A stretch of 6,335 nt of DNA, from the NCBI RefSeq assembly GCF_003334355.1, contig NZ_QOWP01000066.1; one strand, given 5' to 3'. This DNA comes from Escherichia coli (GTDB taxonomy: Bacteria > Pseudomonadota > Gammaproteobacteria > Enterobacterales > Enterobacteriaceae). The notes under the pieces were generated by a model. It was given only the letters and a program-made list of their open reading frames with translations, did not search any database and was not told where the DNA came from. Position 1 is the first letter of the stretch, and every line of letters begins with the position of its first letter. The position numbers and the translations under genes are program-made. This document shows positions 1-6,335 of this stretch, piece by piece.

Positions 1-80
1 ATGCTTCCATCGGAAACGATGATCTGGCAGCCTGAGTTCACAGATAAAACACTCTCCAGGAAACCCGGGGCGGTTCACAA
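1..80. repeat. Left copy of perfect 80-bp terminal inverted repeat
   Basis: Positions 1-80 are the exact reverse complement of 6256-6335 (80/80). Identity breaks at position 81 versus 6255. Contains GTTCACA twice (36-42, 73-79) and the 12-mer TAAAACACTCTC (45-56). Confidence 0.97.
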
Positions 81-1200
81 TTATGCGGTTATATCGCTTA
101 CCTGCGGCCTCAATGAATTTTTGCTGCCCTTTAGTAGCAGACTCATAAAGCTGTTTATCTGAAATGCCTCCCAGACCATCGTTATATGTTCTGACCAGAT
201 TTTCCCGAGCCTGTTGTTGATTCAGCCTGTTCGTACCCGTTCCAAAAAAAGGAATTTTTTCGCCTGTTTTCTGGGCCAGACTCTGCACAGTGTTTTTATC
301 TTTCAGTACGTCACTGGTCATTAACGGTAGGTTTCTTTCCGATGCAAAATCAACAGCGGCTTTCGCTTCCGGTGCCATATCACCGCGAACGGCCCTCGAA
401 ACGGCACTCACTGTATTCTCCAGACCCTTACCAATGCCGCCAATGCCAGCAGAGATTACCGTTTGTAACGGATCAATATCTTCTCCACCAGCGAGGCTGG
501 TGGCTCCCTGTAGTGCTAAATCTGTAGCTGCTGATTTCCCTATGGCCCCCAGCACCGTTCCGGCCCTGCCCGCTGGTGTAAACGCCAGCGCATTAGCCAG
601 AAACGATGCCACGTCTTGCGGTGATAAACCCGGCTTGTTCAGAGCATAATCACCGGATGGTAGGGAAACGATAGTGTTACCCTTCTCATCCTGCCTTAAT
701 TTCGCTCCCATGCTCTGAAGAATCTTTTCCTGAGATGCGTCAGAGCCGAAAAGTTGAGACCATCGAGCTTTTAGAGCATCCATGCTGAGTGAGGTTAACT
801 CTGGGGCAAGGTCGACATTTTGCAGTCTCTCCATCTCTGGAGTCATTCGGCTTTCGCCTGTTATAGCATCGCGCATCGCAGCCCCAAGACTGGCTCCCTG
901 TTCTGCTGAACGTTCAAGCCCCTCTCTTTGCTGAGTCGCTAACTTTGCATACCCTGACGCAAGAGAATTATCAGATGATGTATGTTGAATATTTTGAGTT
1001 GCTGATTGGGCTCGGTCTATTTCATTCGTTGATGGTAGTGGATAGGCAGCATAAAAAGCCTGCTTAGCCTGCTCTACACTTTCTCCGGCTTGCGGGGCAA
1101 CGACTTCGTTGAAGTATTGCTCCTGAGCCTGCGCTTTTTGTTCTGGTGCTAACGCCTGATACTGTGGAGAGGCGATAACATCTTTCCATGCTTTAGCCAT
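1..1200 (-). CDS. Hypothetical protein, third gene of minus-strand operon; 400 codons in window, 3' end beyond window start (partial)
   Basis: ATG at 1200..1198 overlaps the TAA stop of the upstream gene by 1 nt (TAATG), implying translational coupling. SD-like GGGGTG lies 5-6 nt upstream. Hand translation of all 400 codons down to position 1 shows no stop (MAKAWKDVIASPQYQALAPEQKAQAQEQYF ... GKRYNRIIVNRPGFPGECFICELRLPDHRFRWKH). Ala/Gly/Gln/Ser-rich with no catalytic motif recognised. Absent from the ORF track, presumably because it has no in-window stop. Confidence 0.8.
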   Translation of the reverse strand, partial: MAKAWKDVIASPQYQALAPEQKAQAQEQYFNEVVAPQAGESVEQAKQAFYAAYPLPSTNEIDRAQSATQNIQHTSSDNSLASGYAKLATQQREGLERSAEQGASLGAAMRDAITGESRMTPEMERLQNVDLAPELTSLSMDALKARWSQLFGSDASQEKILQSMGAKLRQDEKGNTIVSLPSGDYALNKPGLSPQDVASFLANALAFTPAGRAGTVLGAIGKSAATDLALQGATSLAGGEDIDPLQTVISAGIGGIGKGLENTVSAVSRAVRGDMAPEAKAAVDFASERNLPLMTSDVLKDKNTVQSLAQKTGEKIPFFGTGTNRLNQQQARENLVRTYNDGLGGISDKQLYESATKGQQKFIEAAGKRYNRIIVNRPGFPGECFICELRLPDHRFRWKH

Positions 1201-2666
1201 TAATCACCCCATAGTGAAGAAAAGTTACTGCTGGCTGCTGGCTGTGATACCTGCTCAGATTGCGGCAATGTCTGCGACGAAGAAGAAGTTCCTCTGTCAA
1301 CTGCTGAAATAACCCGCAAAGCATCATAAGCTCGACCAGAAGCAGCTTTCAGCGAATTGAACTGGTTTTCCATCTTCCGGCGCTTGGTATCAATGGTTTT
1401 TGTGGAATCACCAGGCTGAGGGAAATACATTTGATAATATTTTGACATTTCAGCAGGTACGATAGCTGCCCCTGTTTCCTGACGGAGTATTGCCATTATT
1501 GCGTCATTAGCATTAACAACGTATTGCTGCTCTGTTGGGCTGAGCGTTAAGTTAGCCAGCGTCCCATTACCCAAAGCATTATTAATGATCGCCACTCGCT
1601 GTGGGCTAATCTGGCCTTTCAGTGTATCCATTGAATCAAGAGCATCCCTAACTCTGTATGCAAATCCAGCAGCTTTTTTAGCCCCTTCTGGCGACTTTTC
1701 CATGATCTTTTGAGCTGTTGGCAAAGCTATTAGACGAAACCCATCTCCAGATATTGGCTGGTTTAGTTTTCCCTGCTCTTCACTTCCGTCTGTGTAGTAT
1801 TTTGTGACAGTGCCATCATCGTTTTCCCTAACACTCATTAATTTTTTGGCGTTTGTATTAATTCCAGCCGCTGCCGCAAATGCCGCCGCCCCCTCTGGAT
1901 CCGCCTTTAACATTTGAGCGTACTGATTGTAATTCTGCATTGCTGCTGTTGGTGCATATGCTGACGTTAACGCATTTGCTCGGCTAATATCCTGCCCTCT
2001 CGCCTGAAGTGCTTCGCCAGCCTGATTGCTGCGGATTGTCTCTGCCAACTCGCCGCGCTCAATATCCCGACCTTCCATTTGATCTTTGATATCGAAATAC
2101 TTCTCATGACCGAGAGAAAACAGCGCCAGATTACCTGCGAAATGCTGGAAGCCCTGCGGGTCATTAACCTGCATTTCAGCAATAGTTTCTGGAGGGATAC
2201 CTAAACGACGCATCTCCTGCTCATTATCCATCATGAACCTGCCAAATGCGCCCGGACCAAGCGATGAGGCTACCTGTGCTTTGAGCGCCAGATTGCCATA
2301 ATCATCCCTTTGAGCATCATCGACATAACTCATCCCTTTACGGACTTCCTCAAACTCTTCTGGGAATGCTGTAATAAGATTACGCATCTGCTCCCTGTCG
2401 CCGGACGCATAAGCATCTGCATAACCTTTCTGGAATGCCGCTTTACGCTCCTGCTGTTGCTGCTGCTTATAAATATCAGCAACTCCAGCCAGACCACGTA
2501 ACGCGGTCAGACCAACGTTATTTGCACCTGAGCGAGCCAGTTCATTGTTTTCGCGGATCAGACCAAGCGTTGCGTTAATGTCGCTTGCCTTTGGCGCATT
2601 CTCGTTTTGCGTACCGATGCCAGCCAGAAAACCACCAGAATTAATACCCTGTTGCCACGTAGCCAT
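1200..2666 (-). CDS. Hypothetical low-complexity protein (488 aa from ATG), second gene of operon
   Basis: The ORF track gives 1200..2678 (492 aa) starting at a GTG that overlaps the upstream small ORF. I prefer the ATG at 2666..2664 (MATWQQGINSGG...), 4 nt after the TAA of the 57-aa ORF. Stop TAA at 1202..1200. Contains a QQQQQ run and Ala/Gln-rich segments. No Walker, HNH, integrase or nuclease motifs seen by eye. Confidence 0.85.
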   Translation of the reverse strand: MATWQQGINSGGFLAGIGTQNENAPKASDINATLGLIRENNELARSGANNVGLTALRGLAGVADIYKQQQQQERKAAFQKGYADAYASGDREQMRNLITAFPEEFEEVRKGMSYVDDAQRDDYGNLALKAQVASSLGPGAFGRFMMDNEQEMRRLGIPPETIAEMQVNDPQGFQHFAGNLALFSLGHEKYFDIKDQMEGRDIERGELAETIRSNQAGEALQARGQDISRANALTSAYAPTAAMQNYNQYAQMLKADPEGAAAFAAAAGINTNAKKLMSVRENDDGTVTKYYTDGSEEQGKLNQPISGDGFRLIALPTAQKIMEKSPEGAKKAAGFAYRVRDALDSMDTLKGQISPQRVAIINNALGNGTLANLTLSPTEQQYVVNANDAIMAILRQETGAAIVPAEMSKYYQMYFPQPGDSTKTIDTKRRKMENQFNSLKAASGRAYDALRVISAVDRGTSSSSQTLPQSEQVSQPAASSNFSSLWGD

Positions 2667-2670
2667 TGAT

Positions 2671-2844
2671 TTACCCACGTCCAGTTAAAGTGTAAGCCAG
2701 CGCCTTATCCATTAATCCCCGAGCAATTTCGTGGATCGTTGGCGCAACTCCTACCTCTGATTTTTTACGCTGCTCCTCCTGAATTTTCTTTATCGCTTCC
2801 ATTTGCTTCTCACTTATCAATACTGGCTTTACTGAAATAGCCAT
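2671..2844 (-). CDS. Small 57-aa protein, possible ribbon-helix-helix-like DNA-binding regulator (inference)
   Basis: ATG at 2844..2842 preceded by a strong SD (AAGGGGG, 4 nt spacer); stop TAA at 2673..2671. Translation MAISVKPVLISEKQMEAIKKIQEEQRKKSEVGVAPTIHEIARGLMDKALAYTLTGRG has a short N-terminal beta-like segment (KPVLIS) followed by two predicted helices, as in Arc/Mnt/CopG-type folds. Too short for the ORF track. Confidence 0.55.
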   Translation of the reverse strand: MAISVKPVLISEKQMEAIKKIQEEQRKKSEVGVAPTIHEIARGLMDKALAYTLTGRG

Positions 2845-2877
2845 AACGCCCCCTTAGAACTGTATAAAACAACAGTT

Positions 2878-2905
2878 ATTATAGTTTCACAAATCGCAAT
2901 ATTAA
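2878..2905 (-). promoter_or_regulatory. Candidate sigma70 promoter for the three-gene operon
   Basis: On the minus strand a perfect -10 TATAAT (plus-strand 2878-2883), a 16-bp spacer and a -35-like TTAATA (2900-2905, 4/6 match). The predicted start is about 25 nt upstream of the 57-aa ORF ATG. Confidence 0.4.
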
Positions 2906-2918
2906 TCATCGCAATTGC
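2893..2918. promoter_or_regulatory. Operator-like repeats overlapping the -35 region
   Basis: Direct repeat ATCGCAAT at 2893-2900 and 2908-2915 flanking the palindrome ATTAAT, plus the 8-bp perfect palindrome GCAATTGC at 2911-2918. Confidence 0.35.
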
Positions 2919-2939
2919 AAAATATGAAACAAATAGCAC

Positions 2940-2972
2940 AAAAAAATGCCACCGCTCAGTAGCTGGTGGCAT
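2940..2972 (-). terminator. Rho-independent terminator between the primase unit and the downstream operon
   Basis: Minus-strand RNA reads AUGCCACC-A-GCU-ACUG-AGC-GGUGGCAU followed by UUUUUU: an 11-bp GC-rich stem with one bulge and a 4-nt loop, then a 6-U tract. Lies downstream of the primase gene and iterons, and upstream of the operon promoter. Confidence 0.7.
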
Positions 2973-3166
2973 CGTTCTGTATGTCAGGTTTTGACAGGTT
3001 TTTTATGGACTCTAAAAACTATATTTATGGTGTCGCATTACTCTTCACGGCAGGCGCTTTCCAGTTCTGCCCTTGCTTCTGGCTCCATTGGTAATTTGAT
3101 TCGCGATCAGCTATGCGGATGGTTTGCTGAACAGGCATAACAACTTCTCAAAGGCTGTTTTTTGAA

Positions 3167-3183
3167 CTACGAAAATTTCGTAG
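3167..3183. promoter_or_regulatory. Palindrome CTACGAAA-A-TTTCGTAG, putative protein-binding site
   Basis: Perfect 8-bp inverted repeat with a 1-bp centre. Shares the TACGAAA/TTTCGTA half-site with the palindrome at 3222-3242. Confidence 0.35.
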
Positions 3184-3221
3184 TGCTCACTTTCAAAAAC
3201 GTCACGCCCTTGTACACAGGA

Positions 3222-3242
3222 TTTTACGAAAGTCTCGTAAAA
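3222..3242. promoter_or_regulatory. Palindrome TTTTACGA-AAGTC-TCGTAAAA, putative protein-binding site
   Basis: Perfect 8-bp inverted repeat with a 5-bp spacer. Overlaps the 12-mer TAAAACACTCTC (3238-3249), which also occurs in the terminal inverted repeat. Confidence 0.35.
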
Positions 3243-3291
3243 CACTCTCTGATGCCAGCCAGGTGTTGTGCGCATCAATTCAGTCACATTG

Positions 3292-3405
3292 TGTTGGTTC
3301 AAAATACCGTGTTGTTGGTTCAGTGTTGGTTCAATAAAAAGAATAAAATCCTTATAAAACAATACTCTTTACAAATTGAACCAACTGAACCAACTGAACC
3401 AACAC
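3292..3405. repeat. Iteron cluster, putative replication origin or cis-replication region
   Basis: TGTTGGTTCA at 3292-3301, 3313-3322 and 3324-3333 (21- and 11-bp phasing). A 43-bp AT-rich spacer (3334-3376). TGAACCAAC at 3377-3385, 3386-3394 and 3395-3403 in inverted orientation; the 11-mer GTGTTGGTTCA is perfectly inverted at 3395-3405. Starts 24 bp after the primase-helicase stop. Confidence 0.6.
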
Positions 3406-3428
3406 CTTTTCTACGCACATGAAGAAGC

Positions 3429-6185
3429 TCATTCTTCAGATGAGTTGTAATCTCCTGGCTGGTAATTGAGTACATAAACGTTTATTTGTCGTCCCTGAAT
3501 ACGTGGTGATTTTCTTTGGTATCCACGACCGCTGTTTGGTGGGGTTAGCATCCCGGCTTTTTTCAACACTTCAGCAAACTGTTTTGCGTTGAAACCACAT
3601 GCGATCTCCTTTTCAAATGTGGCCGGGAATGTGTAGAAAATCATTGGGCTTTCGTCATGTTCTCCACGCTGACGGTATCCGGCTAAATCTTTGATTGGCA
3701 AATCTGCCGGGCTGTATGGAAATGGTGCAAAACGGCTAAGCCCATAGGCATTAAGAAATGCCTCCGTTTGTTCAATAATCTGCTGATGTTCTTTGTTACC
3801 TGTGCCGAACTCGCGCAACCATGCGTTATAGCTGTGCTGTATCGCATCACGGCATGTCTGAGCATCCCAGCCTGTTACAACCTCGCCTAACAGCAATGCG
3901 GCCTCCAGAATGGCAAATCGCGCGGCTACACGGTGAACCTGCTCACCATAATCGGATGGAATCAGGCTTCTCCATCTGCTTTCGCAGTCACGAACAGTTT
4001 TAATAGCCTGTTGCTGGTGGTCTGCCAGCCATTTAATCCACTCACGCCCGGCTGCGCCGTGGTGATGCTGGTAAGCGTCTTTCAGTGCGTCTGCGTGCTG
4101 TTTTCCGTTCTGGTAATCGTGAAAGAGTACTGCTTTACTCAACGGAATATTCAGCAGTCGCACCAGTTGCCCGGCTTTGGTTTTTCGCCCGGAAGTAGCG
4201 ATAAATGTTTCTAAATCCATTTCTCCAGTGCTGATTGCCACTGTACGCCAGCGTTTTAGATCCCGGTTTCCACCATCTTTAGCGCCTTGCAGTTTCCCTA
4301 CACCGTTAAATAACGCATAGGCAGACTGTGAAACACTGACAGGATCAGCGCCCTGACCAACTTCATCAAGCGGCATTAGTCCGTCATTGTGGGCGGCGGC
4401 TTCATTTGCCAGCCCCAGCGCGGTTCCGTACCACGTCAGCCGCAGTAAATCAGGGTTGCCGTATAAGCTGCTCGCCACGTTTGCCGTGGTGGTCTTACCT
4501 GCGCTCGACTGCTCATAGAAATGAATGCCGAACCCGTCAGCGCCCACCAGCCCAATCAATGGCGCTGCCAGTGCTGCGCCGATCCCGGTCATCATTGAAT
4601 AGTTACCAAAGGCCAGACGCGCCACGTTATCACGCCAGCTTTTCGCGCTCCCTGAGACGGTATATCCGGCTGCGGCTGAGCTTCTCCCGCTGAACAGCAC
4701 AGGATTTTCAGGTGTTCCGATGATTTCCCCATCAGGCATGATGTACGCTCCGCATTGCCAGCCAGTGGCATGAGCAACACGCCACAATTCACGAGAGCCA
4801 CTGCGTTGTAGCCAGTCTGCCAGTATTGCTCTGAGGCTGCTTTTGGTCGTGACATTTACCCCACCAGCTTTAAGTGTGCGCCATCCTTCACGTTCACCAA
4901 TATCAGCCAGTGGAATGGCAGCGGTTGTCGGCGTTTCAGAACCAAACGACAGCCAGCGAAGAATGAGATACTGGTCTTTATCGTCTCTGCCAGTACCGAT
5001 AACGCTTAACGGAGAACATAACCAGCTTTCGTTATTGATGATTTCTCCACTCTGGCTGTCAGCTCTCGGAGATACCCAATAAATACCATCCTCGCGGCTT
5101 TCTATTCTTGGTTTCAGTGGGTCGGTATCCATAACCTTAAAATCGCTTCCCTCAATGGTCTGTGGCTGCTGTTTCACGCCATTACCCTGTGGTTGGTACA
5201 TTGACTTATTGAACGCTTCTGTGGCGCATTTAATGCCGTGTTTTTGGTGGTAATCATTCCAGTCTGCTTTGTGATCTGTCGGGGGTAATGCCACCCATCC
5301 AGAAACAGATAAAGCTGCTTTTTCTGCTGCTATTCTCCCCGTGTTTTGTCTTCCTTCGCTGTGGTCGTTATCCGCAGCAATGATGATTTGTGCTGAAGGA
5401 AATTTATCCCGCAGTACCTGGGCGACATATAACAGGTTCCCGGCATCAATCGCCGCCACTGTCAGCGATTCTGGACGAATTAAATGGGCAGATAATGCCG
5501 TTGCCAGCCCTTCTGCGATTAAGATGCTCTGTGTTGTTTCTGGTGCGTTTATGGCGTGATATGCCCCTCGCTTTGCTGAACCTGTCAGGAGTCTTTTTTC
5601 ACCATGTGAGGTAATAGTCTGTGCTGCTGTGACTGCGCCGGATTTATCCACCAGCGCCAGCAACAGAGATCCATCGGGCAACACTGGGAATGTAAAATCA
5701 CCTACCCCTTTCGCAACCAGATAATCAGATTTGCCGTTTACAGCCTTTCTGCGCATGTCATCAAACTGACGGGAAAACGTATCCCGTCTTTGTTGTTCGT
5801 CCTTCTCTGCCCTTTTCAGGCGCTCCTGTTCGCGTCGCTGGCGCTCGGTTTCCAGTTGTTCCCGTTTCTGGCTGGTGGCTTCTGGTGTTTCCGTTGTCCG
5901 GTAATCAATACCCAGAACATCAGCGGCAAGAAGCGCCGCCTCTGTTGTGTCGCAGTTATTTACGCGTTTAATTAAATCCAGCCCATCACCAGCGCCGCAC
6001 TGATTACAGATGAAGCTACCGCGCCCGTTGTCGTCGAACCGGAATCGATCTTTGCCCCCACATGCAGGGCAGGGAGCATGACGGCGAGGAGAGTCAGGGA
6101 CATTTATGTTCAGACAGCCCAGCACATGAGGCCAGTTGTTTTCAGACGCACTGATAACCTGACGGATAAGATCAATGTTTCGCAT
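3429..6185 (-). CDS. Primase-helicase, P4 alpha-like (zinc ribbon + TOPRIM + P-loop NTPase, 918 aa)
   Basis: ORF track 3429..6185. ATG preceded by SD ACGGGGG with a 5-nt spacer. Zinc-ribbon motif CPACGGKDRFRFDDNGRGSFICNQCG (aa 39-63, nt about 5997-6071). Charged linker ERQRREQERLKRAEKDEQQRRD. TOPRIM signatures IAEGLATA and IIIAADNDHSEG (aa about 220-300). Walker A-like SSAGKTT (aa 560-566, nt 4488-4508) and Walker B-like MPLDEVG. The architecture matches the P4 alpha and DUF927-type primase-helicases of satellites and integrative elements. Confidence 0.92.
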   Translation of the reverse strand: MRNIDLIRQVISASENNWPHVLGCLNINVPDSPRRHAPCPACGGKDRFRFDDNGRGSFICNQCGAGDGLDLIKRVNNCDTTEAALLAADVLGIDYRTTETPEATSQKREQLETERQRREQERLKRAEKDEQQRRDTFSRQFDDMRRKAVNGKSDYLVAKGVGDFTFPVLPDGSLLLALVDKSGAVTAAQTITSHGEKRLLTGSAKRGAYHAINAPETTQSILIAEGLATALSAHLIRPESLTVAAIDAGNLLYVAQVLRDKFPSAQIIIAADNDHSEGRQNTGRIAAEKAALSVSGWVALPPTDHKADWNDYHQKHGIKCATEAFNKSMYQPQGNGVKQQPQTIEGSDFKVMDTDPLKPRIESREDGIYWVSPRADSQSGEIINNESWLCSPLSVIGTGRDDKDQYLILRWLSFGSETPTTAAIPLADIGEREGWRTLKAGGVNVTTKSSLRAILADWLQRSGSRELWRVAHATGWQCGAYIMPDGEIIGTPENPVLFSGRSSAAAGYTVSGSAKSWRDNVARLAFGNYSMMTGIGAALAAPLIGLVGADGFGIHFYEQSSAGKTTTANVASSLYGNPDLLRLTWYGTALGLANEAAAHNDGLMPLDEVGQGADPVSVSQSAYALFNGVGKLQGAKDGGNRDLKRWRTVAISTGEMDLETFIATSGRKTKAGQLVRLLNIPLSKAVLFHDYQNGKQHADALKDAYQHHHGAAGREWIKWLADHQQQAIKTVRDCESRWRSLIPSDYGEQVHRVAARFAILEAALLLGEVVTGWDAQTCRDAIQHSYNAWLREFGTGNKEHQQIIEQTEAFLNAYGLSRFAPFPYSPADLPIKDLAGYRQRGEHDESPMIFYTFPATFEKEIACGFNAKQFAEVLKKAGMLTPPNSGRGYQRKSPRIQGRQINVYVLNYQPGDYNSSEE

Positions 6186-6197
6186 TCTGGCCCCCGT

Positions 6198-6335
6198 TTA
6201 GTGCGTCACTGGTGCTTCTGGGATGCCGTTTTCGTTTAGTTCGGCAATAAAGCTGTTGTGAACCGCCCCGGGTTTCCTGGAGAGTGTTTTATCTGTGAAC
6301 TCAGGCTGCCAGATCATCGTTTCCGATGGAAGCAT
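6198..6335 (-). CDS. Small ORF (45 aa) directly upstream of the primase-helicase; start may lie beyond the window
   Basis: ATG at 6335..6333 and TAA at 6200..6198, ending 12 nt before the primase ATG. Translation MLPSETMIWQPEFTDKTLSRKPGAVHNSFIAELNENGIPEAPVTH. The first 80 nt are the terminal inverted repeat. Operon-like spacing with the primase supports it, but it is short and without recognised motifs. Confidence 0.4.
   Translation of the reverse strand: MLPSETMIWQPEFTDKTLSRKPGAVHNSFIAELNENGIPEAPVTH
6256..6335. repeat. Right copy of perfect 80-bp terminal inverted repeat
   Basis: Exact reverse complement of 1-80. Confidence 0.97.

Follow-up and report, generated by a model that had tools for sequence, protein, structure and literature searches.

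Organization of the locus

We analysed a stretch of 6,335 nucleotides (nt) from Escherichia coli contig NZ_QOWP01000066.1, hereafter the window, which carries a primase–helicase gene and, downstream of it, an operon of three genes. Profile searches and alignments assign the two large proteins of this operon to the gp20 and gp16 families of DNA-ejection proteins of phage P22, and place the operon in a satellite of the EcCIMP1 type, a phage-inducible chromosomal island (PICI). All substantial open reading frames (ORFs) of the window lie on the minus strand: the primase–helicase gene, a gene of 57 amino acids (aa), a gene of 488 aa and a third ORF running from 1200 to 1. The 57-aa gene ends four nucleotides (ATCA) before the 488-aa gene, whose stop codon overlaps the start codon of the third ORF in TAATG. 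An earlier description made from the letters of the window (the sequence-only reading) had taken these ORFs for a separate, tightly packed unit on one strand downstream of the replication module, and the layout bears this out. The operon comprises the following genes:

78–1200, minus strand: 5′ part (codons 1–374 of 701) of a P22 gp16-family ejection ('DNA transfer') gene, disrupted by an insertion sequence (IS)
1200–2666, minus strand: P22 gp20-family ejection gene, 488 aa from ATG, intact, mosaic
2671–2844, minus strand: p57, 57 aa, small island-specific operon leader gene

An alternative start of the 488-aa ORF, a GTG at 2678, would give a protein of 492 aa.

Two large proteins of the P22 ejection families

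The 488-aa protein matches Pfam PF16928 (Inj_translocase, described as "DNA/protein translocase of phage P22 injectosome") with E = 8.8e-85 over aa 12–228, which covers model positions 1–217 of 218. Its match to phrog_917 (E = 3e-145) runs from end to end, aa 1–488 against profile positions 1–504 of 509, and takes in the C-terminal part, the part that is essential in P22. Judged by these profiles, the protein is a homologue of the P22 gp20 family. Its aa 1–234 are 59% identical to gp20 of Escherichia phage N7, with a single difference in the first 60 aa, and the remainder is unrelated to N7 gp20; aa 50–455 are 52% identical to APSE P33. The gene is a mosaic in which stretches are 84–91% identical at the DNA level to Salmonella P22-like phages, which points to recent recombination with phages.

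The third gene was characterized from its intact copy in another island, that of locus L001 (L001:19018-21123, 701 aa; L numbers denote the loci compared). The encoded protein matches phrog_770 ('DNA transfer protein', E = 5e-156, aa 19–700), is 67% identical to ORF13 of phage N7 over 634 aa and is ∼30% identical to P22 gp16 over 474 aa (E = 7e-44). In intact copies the third gene is thus, on alignment evidence, a P22 gp16-family homologue. It lies directly downstream of gp20 with the TAATG overlap, and phages N7 and Kapi1 have the identical order. The ORF is complete in L001, L002, L013, L014 and L015, the L004 copy ends with its contig, and the window copy is incomplete, the C-terminal region of gp16 being missing from it.

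Together, these matches make the identity of the gp20 and gp16 families virtually certain at the sequence level, and they replace the earlier impression that neither large protein had a recognisable family. The accompanying guess, that the proteins might be virion-internal or ejection proteins of small phages, was right. Since the phage-profile matches are full-length, gp20 and gp16 are not fragments. A sequence search of the PDB returned no solved relative of the gp20-like, gp16-like or p57 proteins.

Names given by the Prokaryotic Genome Annotation Pipeline (PGAP) include "phage DNA ejection protein" and "injection protein / P22-gp16 family". The 57-aa, 488-aa and gp16-like proteins had zero matches in NCBIfam, and the PGAP names must therefore derive from other evidence. 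PGAP also flags the 701-aa gene as 'incomplete; missing C-terminus' (L002:19308-21123; L013:16598-18413). We rejected this flag, as the ORF is complete and has no internal stops; it arises because the gp16-like gene was compared with the shorter P22 gp16 model.

When the gp16-like protein was used to query genome contigs, nine loci were found, eight of them ordinary P22-like prophages or their remnants. Portal and/or gp14/gp7 genes lie upstream in seven of these eight, and L011 has the gp16 match only.

The operon lies in an EcCIMP1-type island

The segment 78–6262 of the window is present intact in at least 264 of 5,426 complete E. coli genomes. The island in those genomes is ∼18 kb long; in L001, flanking attachment (att) repeats of 22 nt lie 18.2 kb apart. 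Its gene order is integrase, AlpA-like regulator, AntA/B antirepressor, DUF4222, Ash, small ORFs, primase, p57, gp20 and gp16, followed downstream of gp16 by variable cargo and a PerC gene. The L001 integrase (phrog_1, E = 2e-77) and AlpA-like gene (phrog_66/2790) are outside the segment that the window covers, and the window contig accordingly has no int or alpA, their place being beyond its IS copies.

The window primase (phrog_1139 DNA primase, E = 3.5e-178) is identical to the primase of EcCIMP1, from E. coli strain MP1, at 912 of 918 aa (99.3%), which makes the window cassette an allele of that satellite's "DNA transfer" module. In L001 and in strain 83972 the island occupies the thrW site, as EcCIMP1 does. 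By these comparisons of genes and site, the element is classed as an EcCIMP1-type PICI, a satellite of P22-like podoviruses. EcCIMP1 itself is a 19,963-bp PICI that sits in E. coli MP1 at a tRNA-Thr gene flanked by proA and yagU; its excision and transduction require induction of the P22-like phage Kapi1 as well as alpA and int, and it adds to the superinfection immunity of Kapi1 lysogens (PMC11773190).

The sequence-only reading had set the element against canonical P4. It is not canonical P4: the primase is a TOPRIM+DUF927 protein of the EcCIMP1 kind, and no psu, delta, sid or epsilon was annotated or detected among the island proteins scanned (L001; annotation and PHROG scans only).

No capsid, portal, terminase, tail or lysis genes were found in the annotation and PHROG scans of L001, L002, L013, L014 and L015, and the ejection genes are the only virion-protein genes in these island copies. 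It had been proposed earlier that homology to well-characterised phage families, with the phage gene order, would reduce the operon to an ordinary structural module. This holds in part: the homology to characterised ejection proteins and the P22-like gene order are there, whereas the rest of such a module (capsid, portal, terminase, tail and lysis genes) is absent from the island.

Cassette exchange and purifying selection

At least three cassette alleles occur on a backbone whose primase has a synonymous divergence (dS) of about 0.025:

Allele A (window, L001, L002, L014): p57-gp20(488)-gp16(701)
Allele B (L004, strain 83972): p53-gp14-gp7-gp20(473)-gp16(701)
Allele C (EcCIMP1): p53-gp14-gp7-gp20(439)-SLT::gp16(906)

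Between alleles A and C, gp20 is 25% and gp16 22% identical, and across the three alleles identity in gp20/gp16 is 22–25%. Both allele A (at least 264) and allele B (14-7-20-16; at least 253) are common among the 5,426 complete E. coli genomes. The unit of terminator, promoter, p57 and cassette is found also behind a DUF5906 primase, beside a different integrase and att site.

ORF integrity was assessed in six other island copies, the gp16 gene of L004 being checkable for its first 412 codons only. Every cassette ORF examined in these six copies is intact, apart from the cut that the contig end makes in the L004 gp16 gene. Between island copies, the ratio of nonsynonymous to synonymous substitution rates (dN/dS) is 0.06–0.14 for gp16, 0.10–0.29 for gp20 and 0.13 for p57. 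Judged by these ratios, the gp20/gp16 cassette is under purifying selection.

The ejection proteins of EcCIMP1 were also compared with those of its helper Kapi1. Identities are 83% for gp14 and 57% for gp7, and only 26% for gp20 and 24% for gp16, so the island is not simply duplicating the proteins of its helper.

A p57-led slot across genera

Homologues of p57 occur in Serratia, Klebsiella, Erwinia, Raoultella and others, always as the first gene of an equivalent operon. Each operon examined follows a DUF927 or DUF5906 primase, and the upstream region, where recovered, is that of an island of the int-AlpA-AntA/Ash type. The genes that follow the p57 homologue are:

Serratia: gp20 and SLT::gp16
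Klebsiella quasipneumoniae: a tape-measure protein with a transglycosylase domain (phrog_2276, E = 2e-199) and a Dit-like tail protein
Erwinia persicina, and L026: a 108-aa protein and a full-length tape-measure protein (phrog_1107, E = 0)
Raoultella: a 605-aa phage protein with a tape-measure/"injection transglycosylase"-like C-terminus
Metagenome contig L025:8506-15933: a T7-gp14-type internal virion protein (E = 1e-61), an SLT-bearing internal protein and two large virion proteins
E. coli variant L027–L029 (L027:8177-9599), with a DUF5906 primase: three small proteins of 223, 115 and 116 aa with no PHROG match

In nine of the ten distinct p57 contexts, which span at least five genera, the slot thus holds P22 ejection (E) proteins, T7-gp14-type internal proteins or tape-measure proteins. 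In the phages they come from, such proteins exit the virion together with the DNA and form or prime the conduit across the cell envelope. We put forward the reading of these operons as one cross-genus slot tentatively, from the sequences of these ten contexts. The gene set of L025 suggests a helper from another podovirus lineage.

In the Raoultella locus (L023; 11142-11648, 13168-13752), the tape-measure-like gene is followed by one whose product resembles a small terminase at its N-terminus (phrog_57, E = 4.5e-9), and a second ORF has a faint Terminase_2 match. The terminase-like gene may provide a packaging-redirection function that is missing from the E. coli islands.

The word 'ejection' does not occur in the EcCIMP1 paper, nor does 'injection' (PMC11773190). 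Our literature search found no statement of the identity of the P22 ejection block or of a cross-genus p57-led delivery slot, and both appear not to have been stated before.

A possible genome-delivery module and its alternatives

In P22, gp7, gp20 and gp16 are ejected and build a conduit through the periplasm and the inner membrane, and E proteins of foreign origin can take their place in assembly and injection. Variability among E proteins is greatest in gp20 and gp16, gp7 being conserved, and mutations that escape SieA fall in the C-terminal parts of gp20 and gp16 (PMC10883804). We consider the chances evenly balanced that the operon is a genome-delivery module, by which the island loads its own DNA-delivery proteins into particles built by the helper. 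The minimal layout of gp20 and gp16 only, which recurs independently in E. coli and Serratia, fits this idea because specificity resides in these two proteins.

The mechanism that we propose, to which we give somewhat less than an even chance, would run as follows. Once the helper phage is induced, the AlpA-driven programme of the island would switch the operon on. Island gp20 and gp16 would then enter the procapsids built by the helper, beside the helper's own proteins or in their place, and particles with island DNA would inject through a conduit specified by the island. Such a conduit could alter sensitivity to SieA-type injection blocks or to membrane factors of the recipient, and would let the island work with whichever helper type it met. 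A wider proposal, which we make only tentatively, is that EcCIMP1-family satellites of Enterobacterales keep a dedicated, exchangeable slot (the conserved promoter plus p57). This slot would be filled with the conduit proteins of the phage type being exploited (P22 gp(14-7-)20-16, T7-gp14-type internal core proteins, or siphovirus tape-measure proteins with or without Dit), and the proteins would be loaded into helper-built particles so that the DNA could enter by a conduit of the island's choosing, for example one that is insensitive to SieA.

Several observations weigh against genome delivery. E proteins load before DNA is packaged; particles of the helper and of the satellite would therefore take them up alike, and it is not obvious how the satellite in particular would benefit. 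Allele A has neither gp7 nor gp14 and hence would depend on the helper for both. Transduction of EcCIMP1 by Kapi1 is low, about 5e3 per ml, and a Kapi1-like prophage is present in only 2 of 21 EcCIMP1 strains (PMC11773190). The E. coli variant of L027–L029 is the sole exception to the pattern of delivery proteins in the slot, and the window copy of the cassette is itself disrupted by an IS.

Interference or exclusion, in which island gp20 and gp16 would poison helper virions as co-assembled, mismatched subunits or, made in the resident cell, would disturb the conduit of an incoming P22-like phage in the manner of superinfection exclusion, seems to us unlikely. It would agree with island proteins that are of another type than the helper's, with the membrane association of gp16 and the action of SieA at the same step, and with the interference with helpers that is common among satellites. 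However, Kapi1 titres from induced lysogens are unaffected by EcCIMP1 (PMC11773190), which argues against poisoning of virions, and the proteins are full-length and under purifying selection along their whole length, unlike dominant-negative fragments. The search with PADLOC was empty, and E proteins in the cytoplasm have no obvious route to the periplasmic conduit of an incoming phage. Full-length tape-measure proteins in sister islands likewise fit building better than blocking.

We regard it as improbable that the cassette is an evolutionary relic, that is, a fragment of the late operon of a P22-like prophage, captured by recombination, that hitchhikes with no function for the island. The phage-like stretches of the gp20 mosaic, the tolerance of an IS insertion by the window copy and the PGAP flags that mark some copies as partial could all be taken as signs of it. 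Yet none of the six other copies examined has a broken ORF, the 'incomplete' flags being artefacts, and dN/dS is far below 1. Moreover, the dedicated promoter and leader gene are kept across genera, the alleles have been replaced repeatedly rather than left to decay, and analogous delivery proteins fill the same slot in distant genera.

Least probable of all is a role in packaging or capsid morphogenesis, tentatively suggested by the EcCIMP1 authors, who reported no phage structural genes (PMC11773190): genes that redirect helper packaging or head assembly to island DNA would suit a position where other Gram-negative PICIs keep their packaging module, and the DUF2824/phrog_651 gene (gp14) of alleles B and C is annotated 'head morphogenesis', but P22 7-, 16- and 20- mutants, consistent with PMC10883804, package DNA into particles that cannot inject, so that packaging is not the function of these families, the window and Serratia alleles have no gp14, and no terminase-like or pac-recognition protein was found in the E. 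coli cassette.

Comparison with known systems

The closest known system is EcCIMP1 (Pick, Stadel & Raivio, ISME J 2025; PMC11773190), with which the islands described here share the order int-alpA-antA-ash-small ORFs-primase, the terminator-promoter-p57 leader, and the downstream PerC gene with variable cargo. EcCIMP1 differs in its cassette, p53-gp14-gp7-gp20(439)-SLT::gp16(906), whereas that of the window is p57-gp20(488)-gp16(701), without gp14 and gp7 and with two IS breaks.

The P22-like phages (Lederbergvirus: P22, Sf6, HK620, N7, Kapi1) have homologous, adjacent gp20 and gp16 genes with overlapping stop and start; in N7 and Kapi1 the order is gp14-gp7-gp20-gp16, and intragenic mosaicism is typical of these genes (PMC10883804). 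Unlike those of the phage late operon, the island genes have no portal, coat, scaffold, tail or lysis neighbours, and they have their own promoter and leader gene, p57.

P4-like satellites share with these islands a tyrosine integrase, an AlpA-type regulator, an Ash-family gene, a primase–helicase followed by iterons, and variable cargo of the defence type, and some sister islands carry a P4-alpha-like D5_N/DUF5906 primase. In contrast to P4, the window primase is a TOPRIM+DUF927 protein, not alpha, and the experimental helper of the EcCIMP1 family is a P22-like podovirus, not a P2-like myovirus.

Tape-measure satellites, namely the mycobacterial EPIPs and PLE11 with its proposed TMP-like protein, also lack most virion genes yet keep a protein for DNA delivery or tail length, and tape-measure proteins are stated to be otherwise absent from satellites (bioRxiv 10.64898/2025.12.02.691453). 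The sister islands in Klebsiella, Erwinia and L026 carry tape-measure proteins as well. EPIPs and PLE11 belong to unrelated lineages and hosts; here, ejection proteins of podovirus type occupy a conserved, exchangeable slot headed by p57. Capsid-forming PICIs (cfPICIs) are satellites that supply part of their own virion and take the rest from a helper. They differ in encoding capsid and packaging proteins and stealing tails, whereas this island encodes neither capsid nor packaging proteins, only ejection proteins. A PICI paper on 'tail assembly interference' was considered as a precedent and set aside, as it concerns other proteins: 'gp20' there is the central tail fibre, and the P22 target is the gp26 needle.

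In itself, the locus represents two known families of phage proteins in a published satellite family, in a copy damaged by an IS. About 1 in 10 complete E. coli genomes nevertheless has an island without capsid, tail or terminase genes whose ejection genes are intact, selected and swapped as a cassette. Should these proteins enter helper virions, the step of DNA entry would come under satellite control, a form of molecular piracy not yet described, exerted at ejection rather than on capsid size or packaging. Recipient range, the means of coping with superinfection exclusion and the spread of phage DNA-delivery modules would then all be affected. EcCIMP1 and Kapi1 form an existing experimental system in which the idea is directly testable.

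Leader gene, control signals and cargo

The 57-aa product of p57 had no match in Pfam, PHROGs, NCBIfam or PADLOC, Pfam being empty for 12 homologues also, and tblastn against 50,697 phage records found nothing at E ≤ 1. Homologues share the invariant motif S..GVAP..H.IARGL.DKAL. We considered p57 as a remnant of gp7 and rejected this, BLASTP giving no alignment. It had been called ribbon-helix-helix (RHH)-like, for which we found no support. The AlphaFold2 (AF2) monomer, an extended N-terminus with two helices (pLDDT 77.6), is compatible with an RHH fold without being diagnostic of it, and Foldseek gave 0 matches in the PDB. A tethered-dimer AF2 model (pTM 0.20) contains no strand, and hhalign put the probability of a match to the Arc-family proteins of N7 and Kapi1 at 0.65%.

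The remaining features of the window are:

1–77, no strand: terminal 77 nt of the IS3-family element IS1203/IS629; contig boundary; truncates the gp16-like gene
2850–2925, minus strand: operon promoter region, TTAATA-16-TATAAT (2905–2878), flanked by conserved GTTTCA / TGAAAC
About 2940–2980, minus strand: intrinsic terminator between the replication unit and the operon
3290–3405, no strand: GAACCAAC/GGTTCAGTT iterons, candidate origin of the DUF927 primase module
3429–6185, minus strand: TOPRIM + DUF927 primase–helicase, 918 aa; context, outside the operon
6259–6335, no strand: second IS1203/IS629 terminus, inverted; cuts a 200-aa gene upstream of the primase

The promoter and the strong insulating terminator that had been predicted for the operon were both found. 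TTAATA-16-TATAAT is the top-scoring sigma-70-like site within 1–3500, a region in which the number of promoter-like sites is not above that of shuffled sequences. The promoter elements GTTTCAT and TGAAACTATAAT are kept in the E. coli, Serratia and Erwinia islands, and the promoter region moves with the cassette even where the primase gene differs. The terminator hairpin has a folding energy of −22.7 kcal/mol (z = −6.5 against shuffles) and is followed by U7; a consensus scan finds the same terminator. GTTTCA and TGAAAC stand inverted, ∼36 nt apart, on the two sides of the promoter (window 2850–2925), from E. coli to Erwinia, and the pair could be where an activator (AlpA?) or p57 binds.

Tandem 9-nt repeats, the GAACCAAC/GGTTCAGTT iterons, lie between the stop codon of the primase gene and the terminator. 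They are kept in the Serratia island, which has a DUF927 primase, and unrelated repeats take their place in the E. coli island with a DUF5906 primase. From this distribution, the iterons (3290–3405) are a candidate replication origin that co-varies with its initiator.

A non-coding stretch of ∼280 nt (window ∼2965–3246), which ends at the terminator, is near-identical in L014 and EcCIMP1 despite their differing primases; it is absent from Serratia and moves with the cassette. An Rfam search of the conserved leader (400 nt) for non-coding RNA gave nothing but eukaryotic miRNA noise below the threshold. The ∼280-nt stretch could be an island-specific RNA or a regulatory leader.

Downstream of the cassette lies a variable cargo hotspot with Abi_2 abortive-infection genes, an RnlA/RnlB toxin-antitoxin pair, PRiA4_ORF3 and PerC (L002:16724-17686; L017:15650-16612; L018:16949-18162; L021:16531-17538), which resembles the defence hotspots of P4-like satellites. 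PADLOC gave no match for the three operon proteins or for the cargo ORFs of L001, and lends no support to the idea that the operon is defence cargo.

IS boundaries of the window copy

Inverted copies of IS1203/IS629 bound the window, a short-read contig, at its two ends. Positions 1–80 are a perfect inverted repeat (80 nt) of 6256–6335, made up of the last 77 nt of IS1203/IS629 and a TTG at each junction, and positions 1–77 match at 100% the ends of thousands of IS3/IS1203 transposase genes on plasmids. The third ORF had been taken for a protein of 400 aa or more; it does not simply run off the window. Its codons 1–374 come from the 701-aa gene, which is cut there, and its last 26 codons are read-through into the IS. 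Because the IS cuts the gp16 gene at codon 374, the window copy is probably defective. This IS at the gp16 junction is seen in no complete E. coli genome, which indicates that only the source strain carries this damage.

Alignment with an intact copy places the breakpoint in the gp16-like gene at ...ATAATTG/TGAACCGCCCC, also given as ...ATAATTG/TGAACCGCC, and the one upstream of the primase at ...GCTGTTG/TGAACCGCCCC, also given as ...GCTGTTG/TGAACCGCC. The same IS end faces both junctions, and the TTG that they share may reflect chance or target preference.

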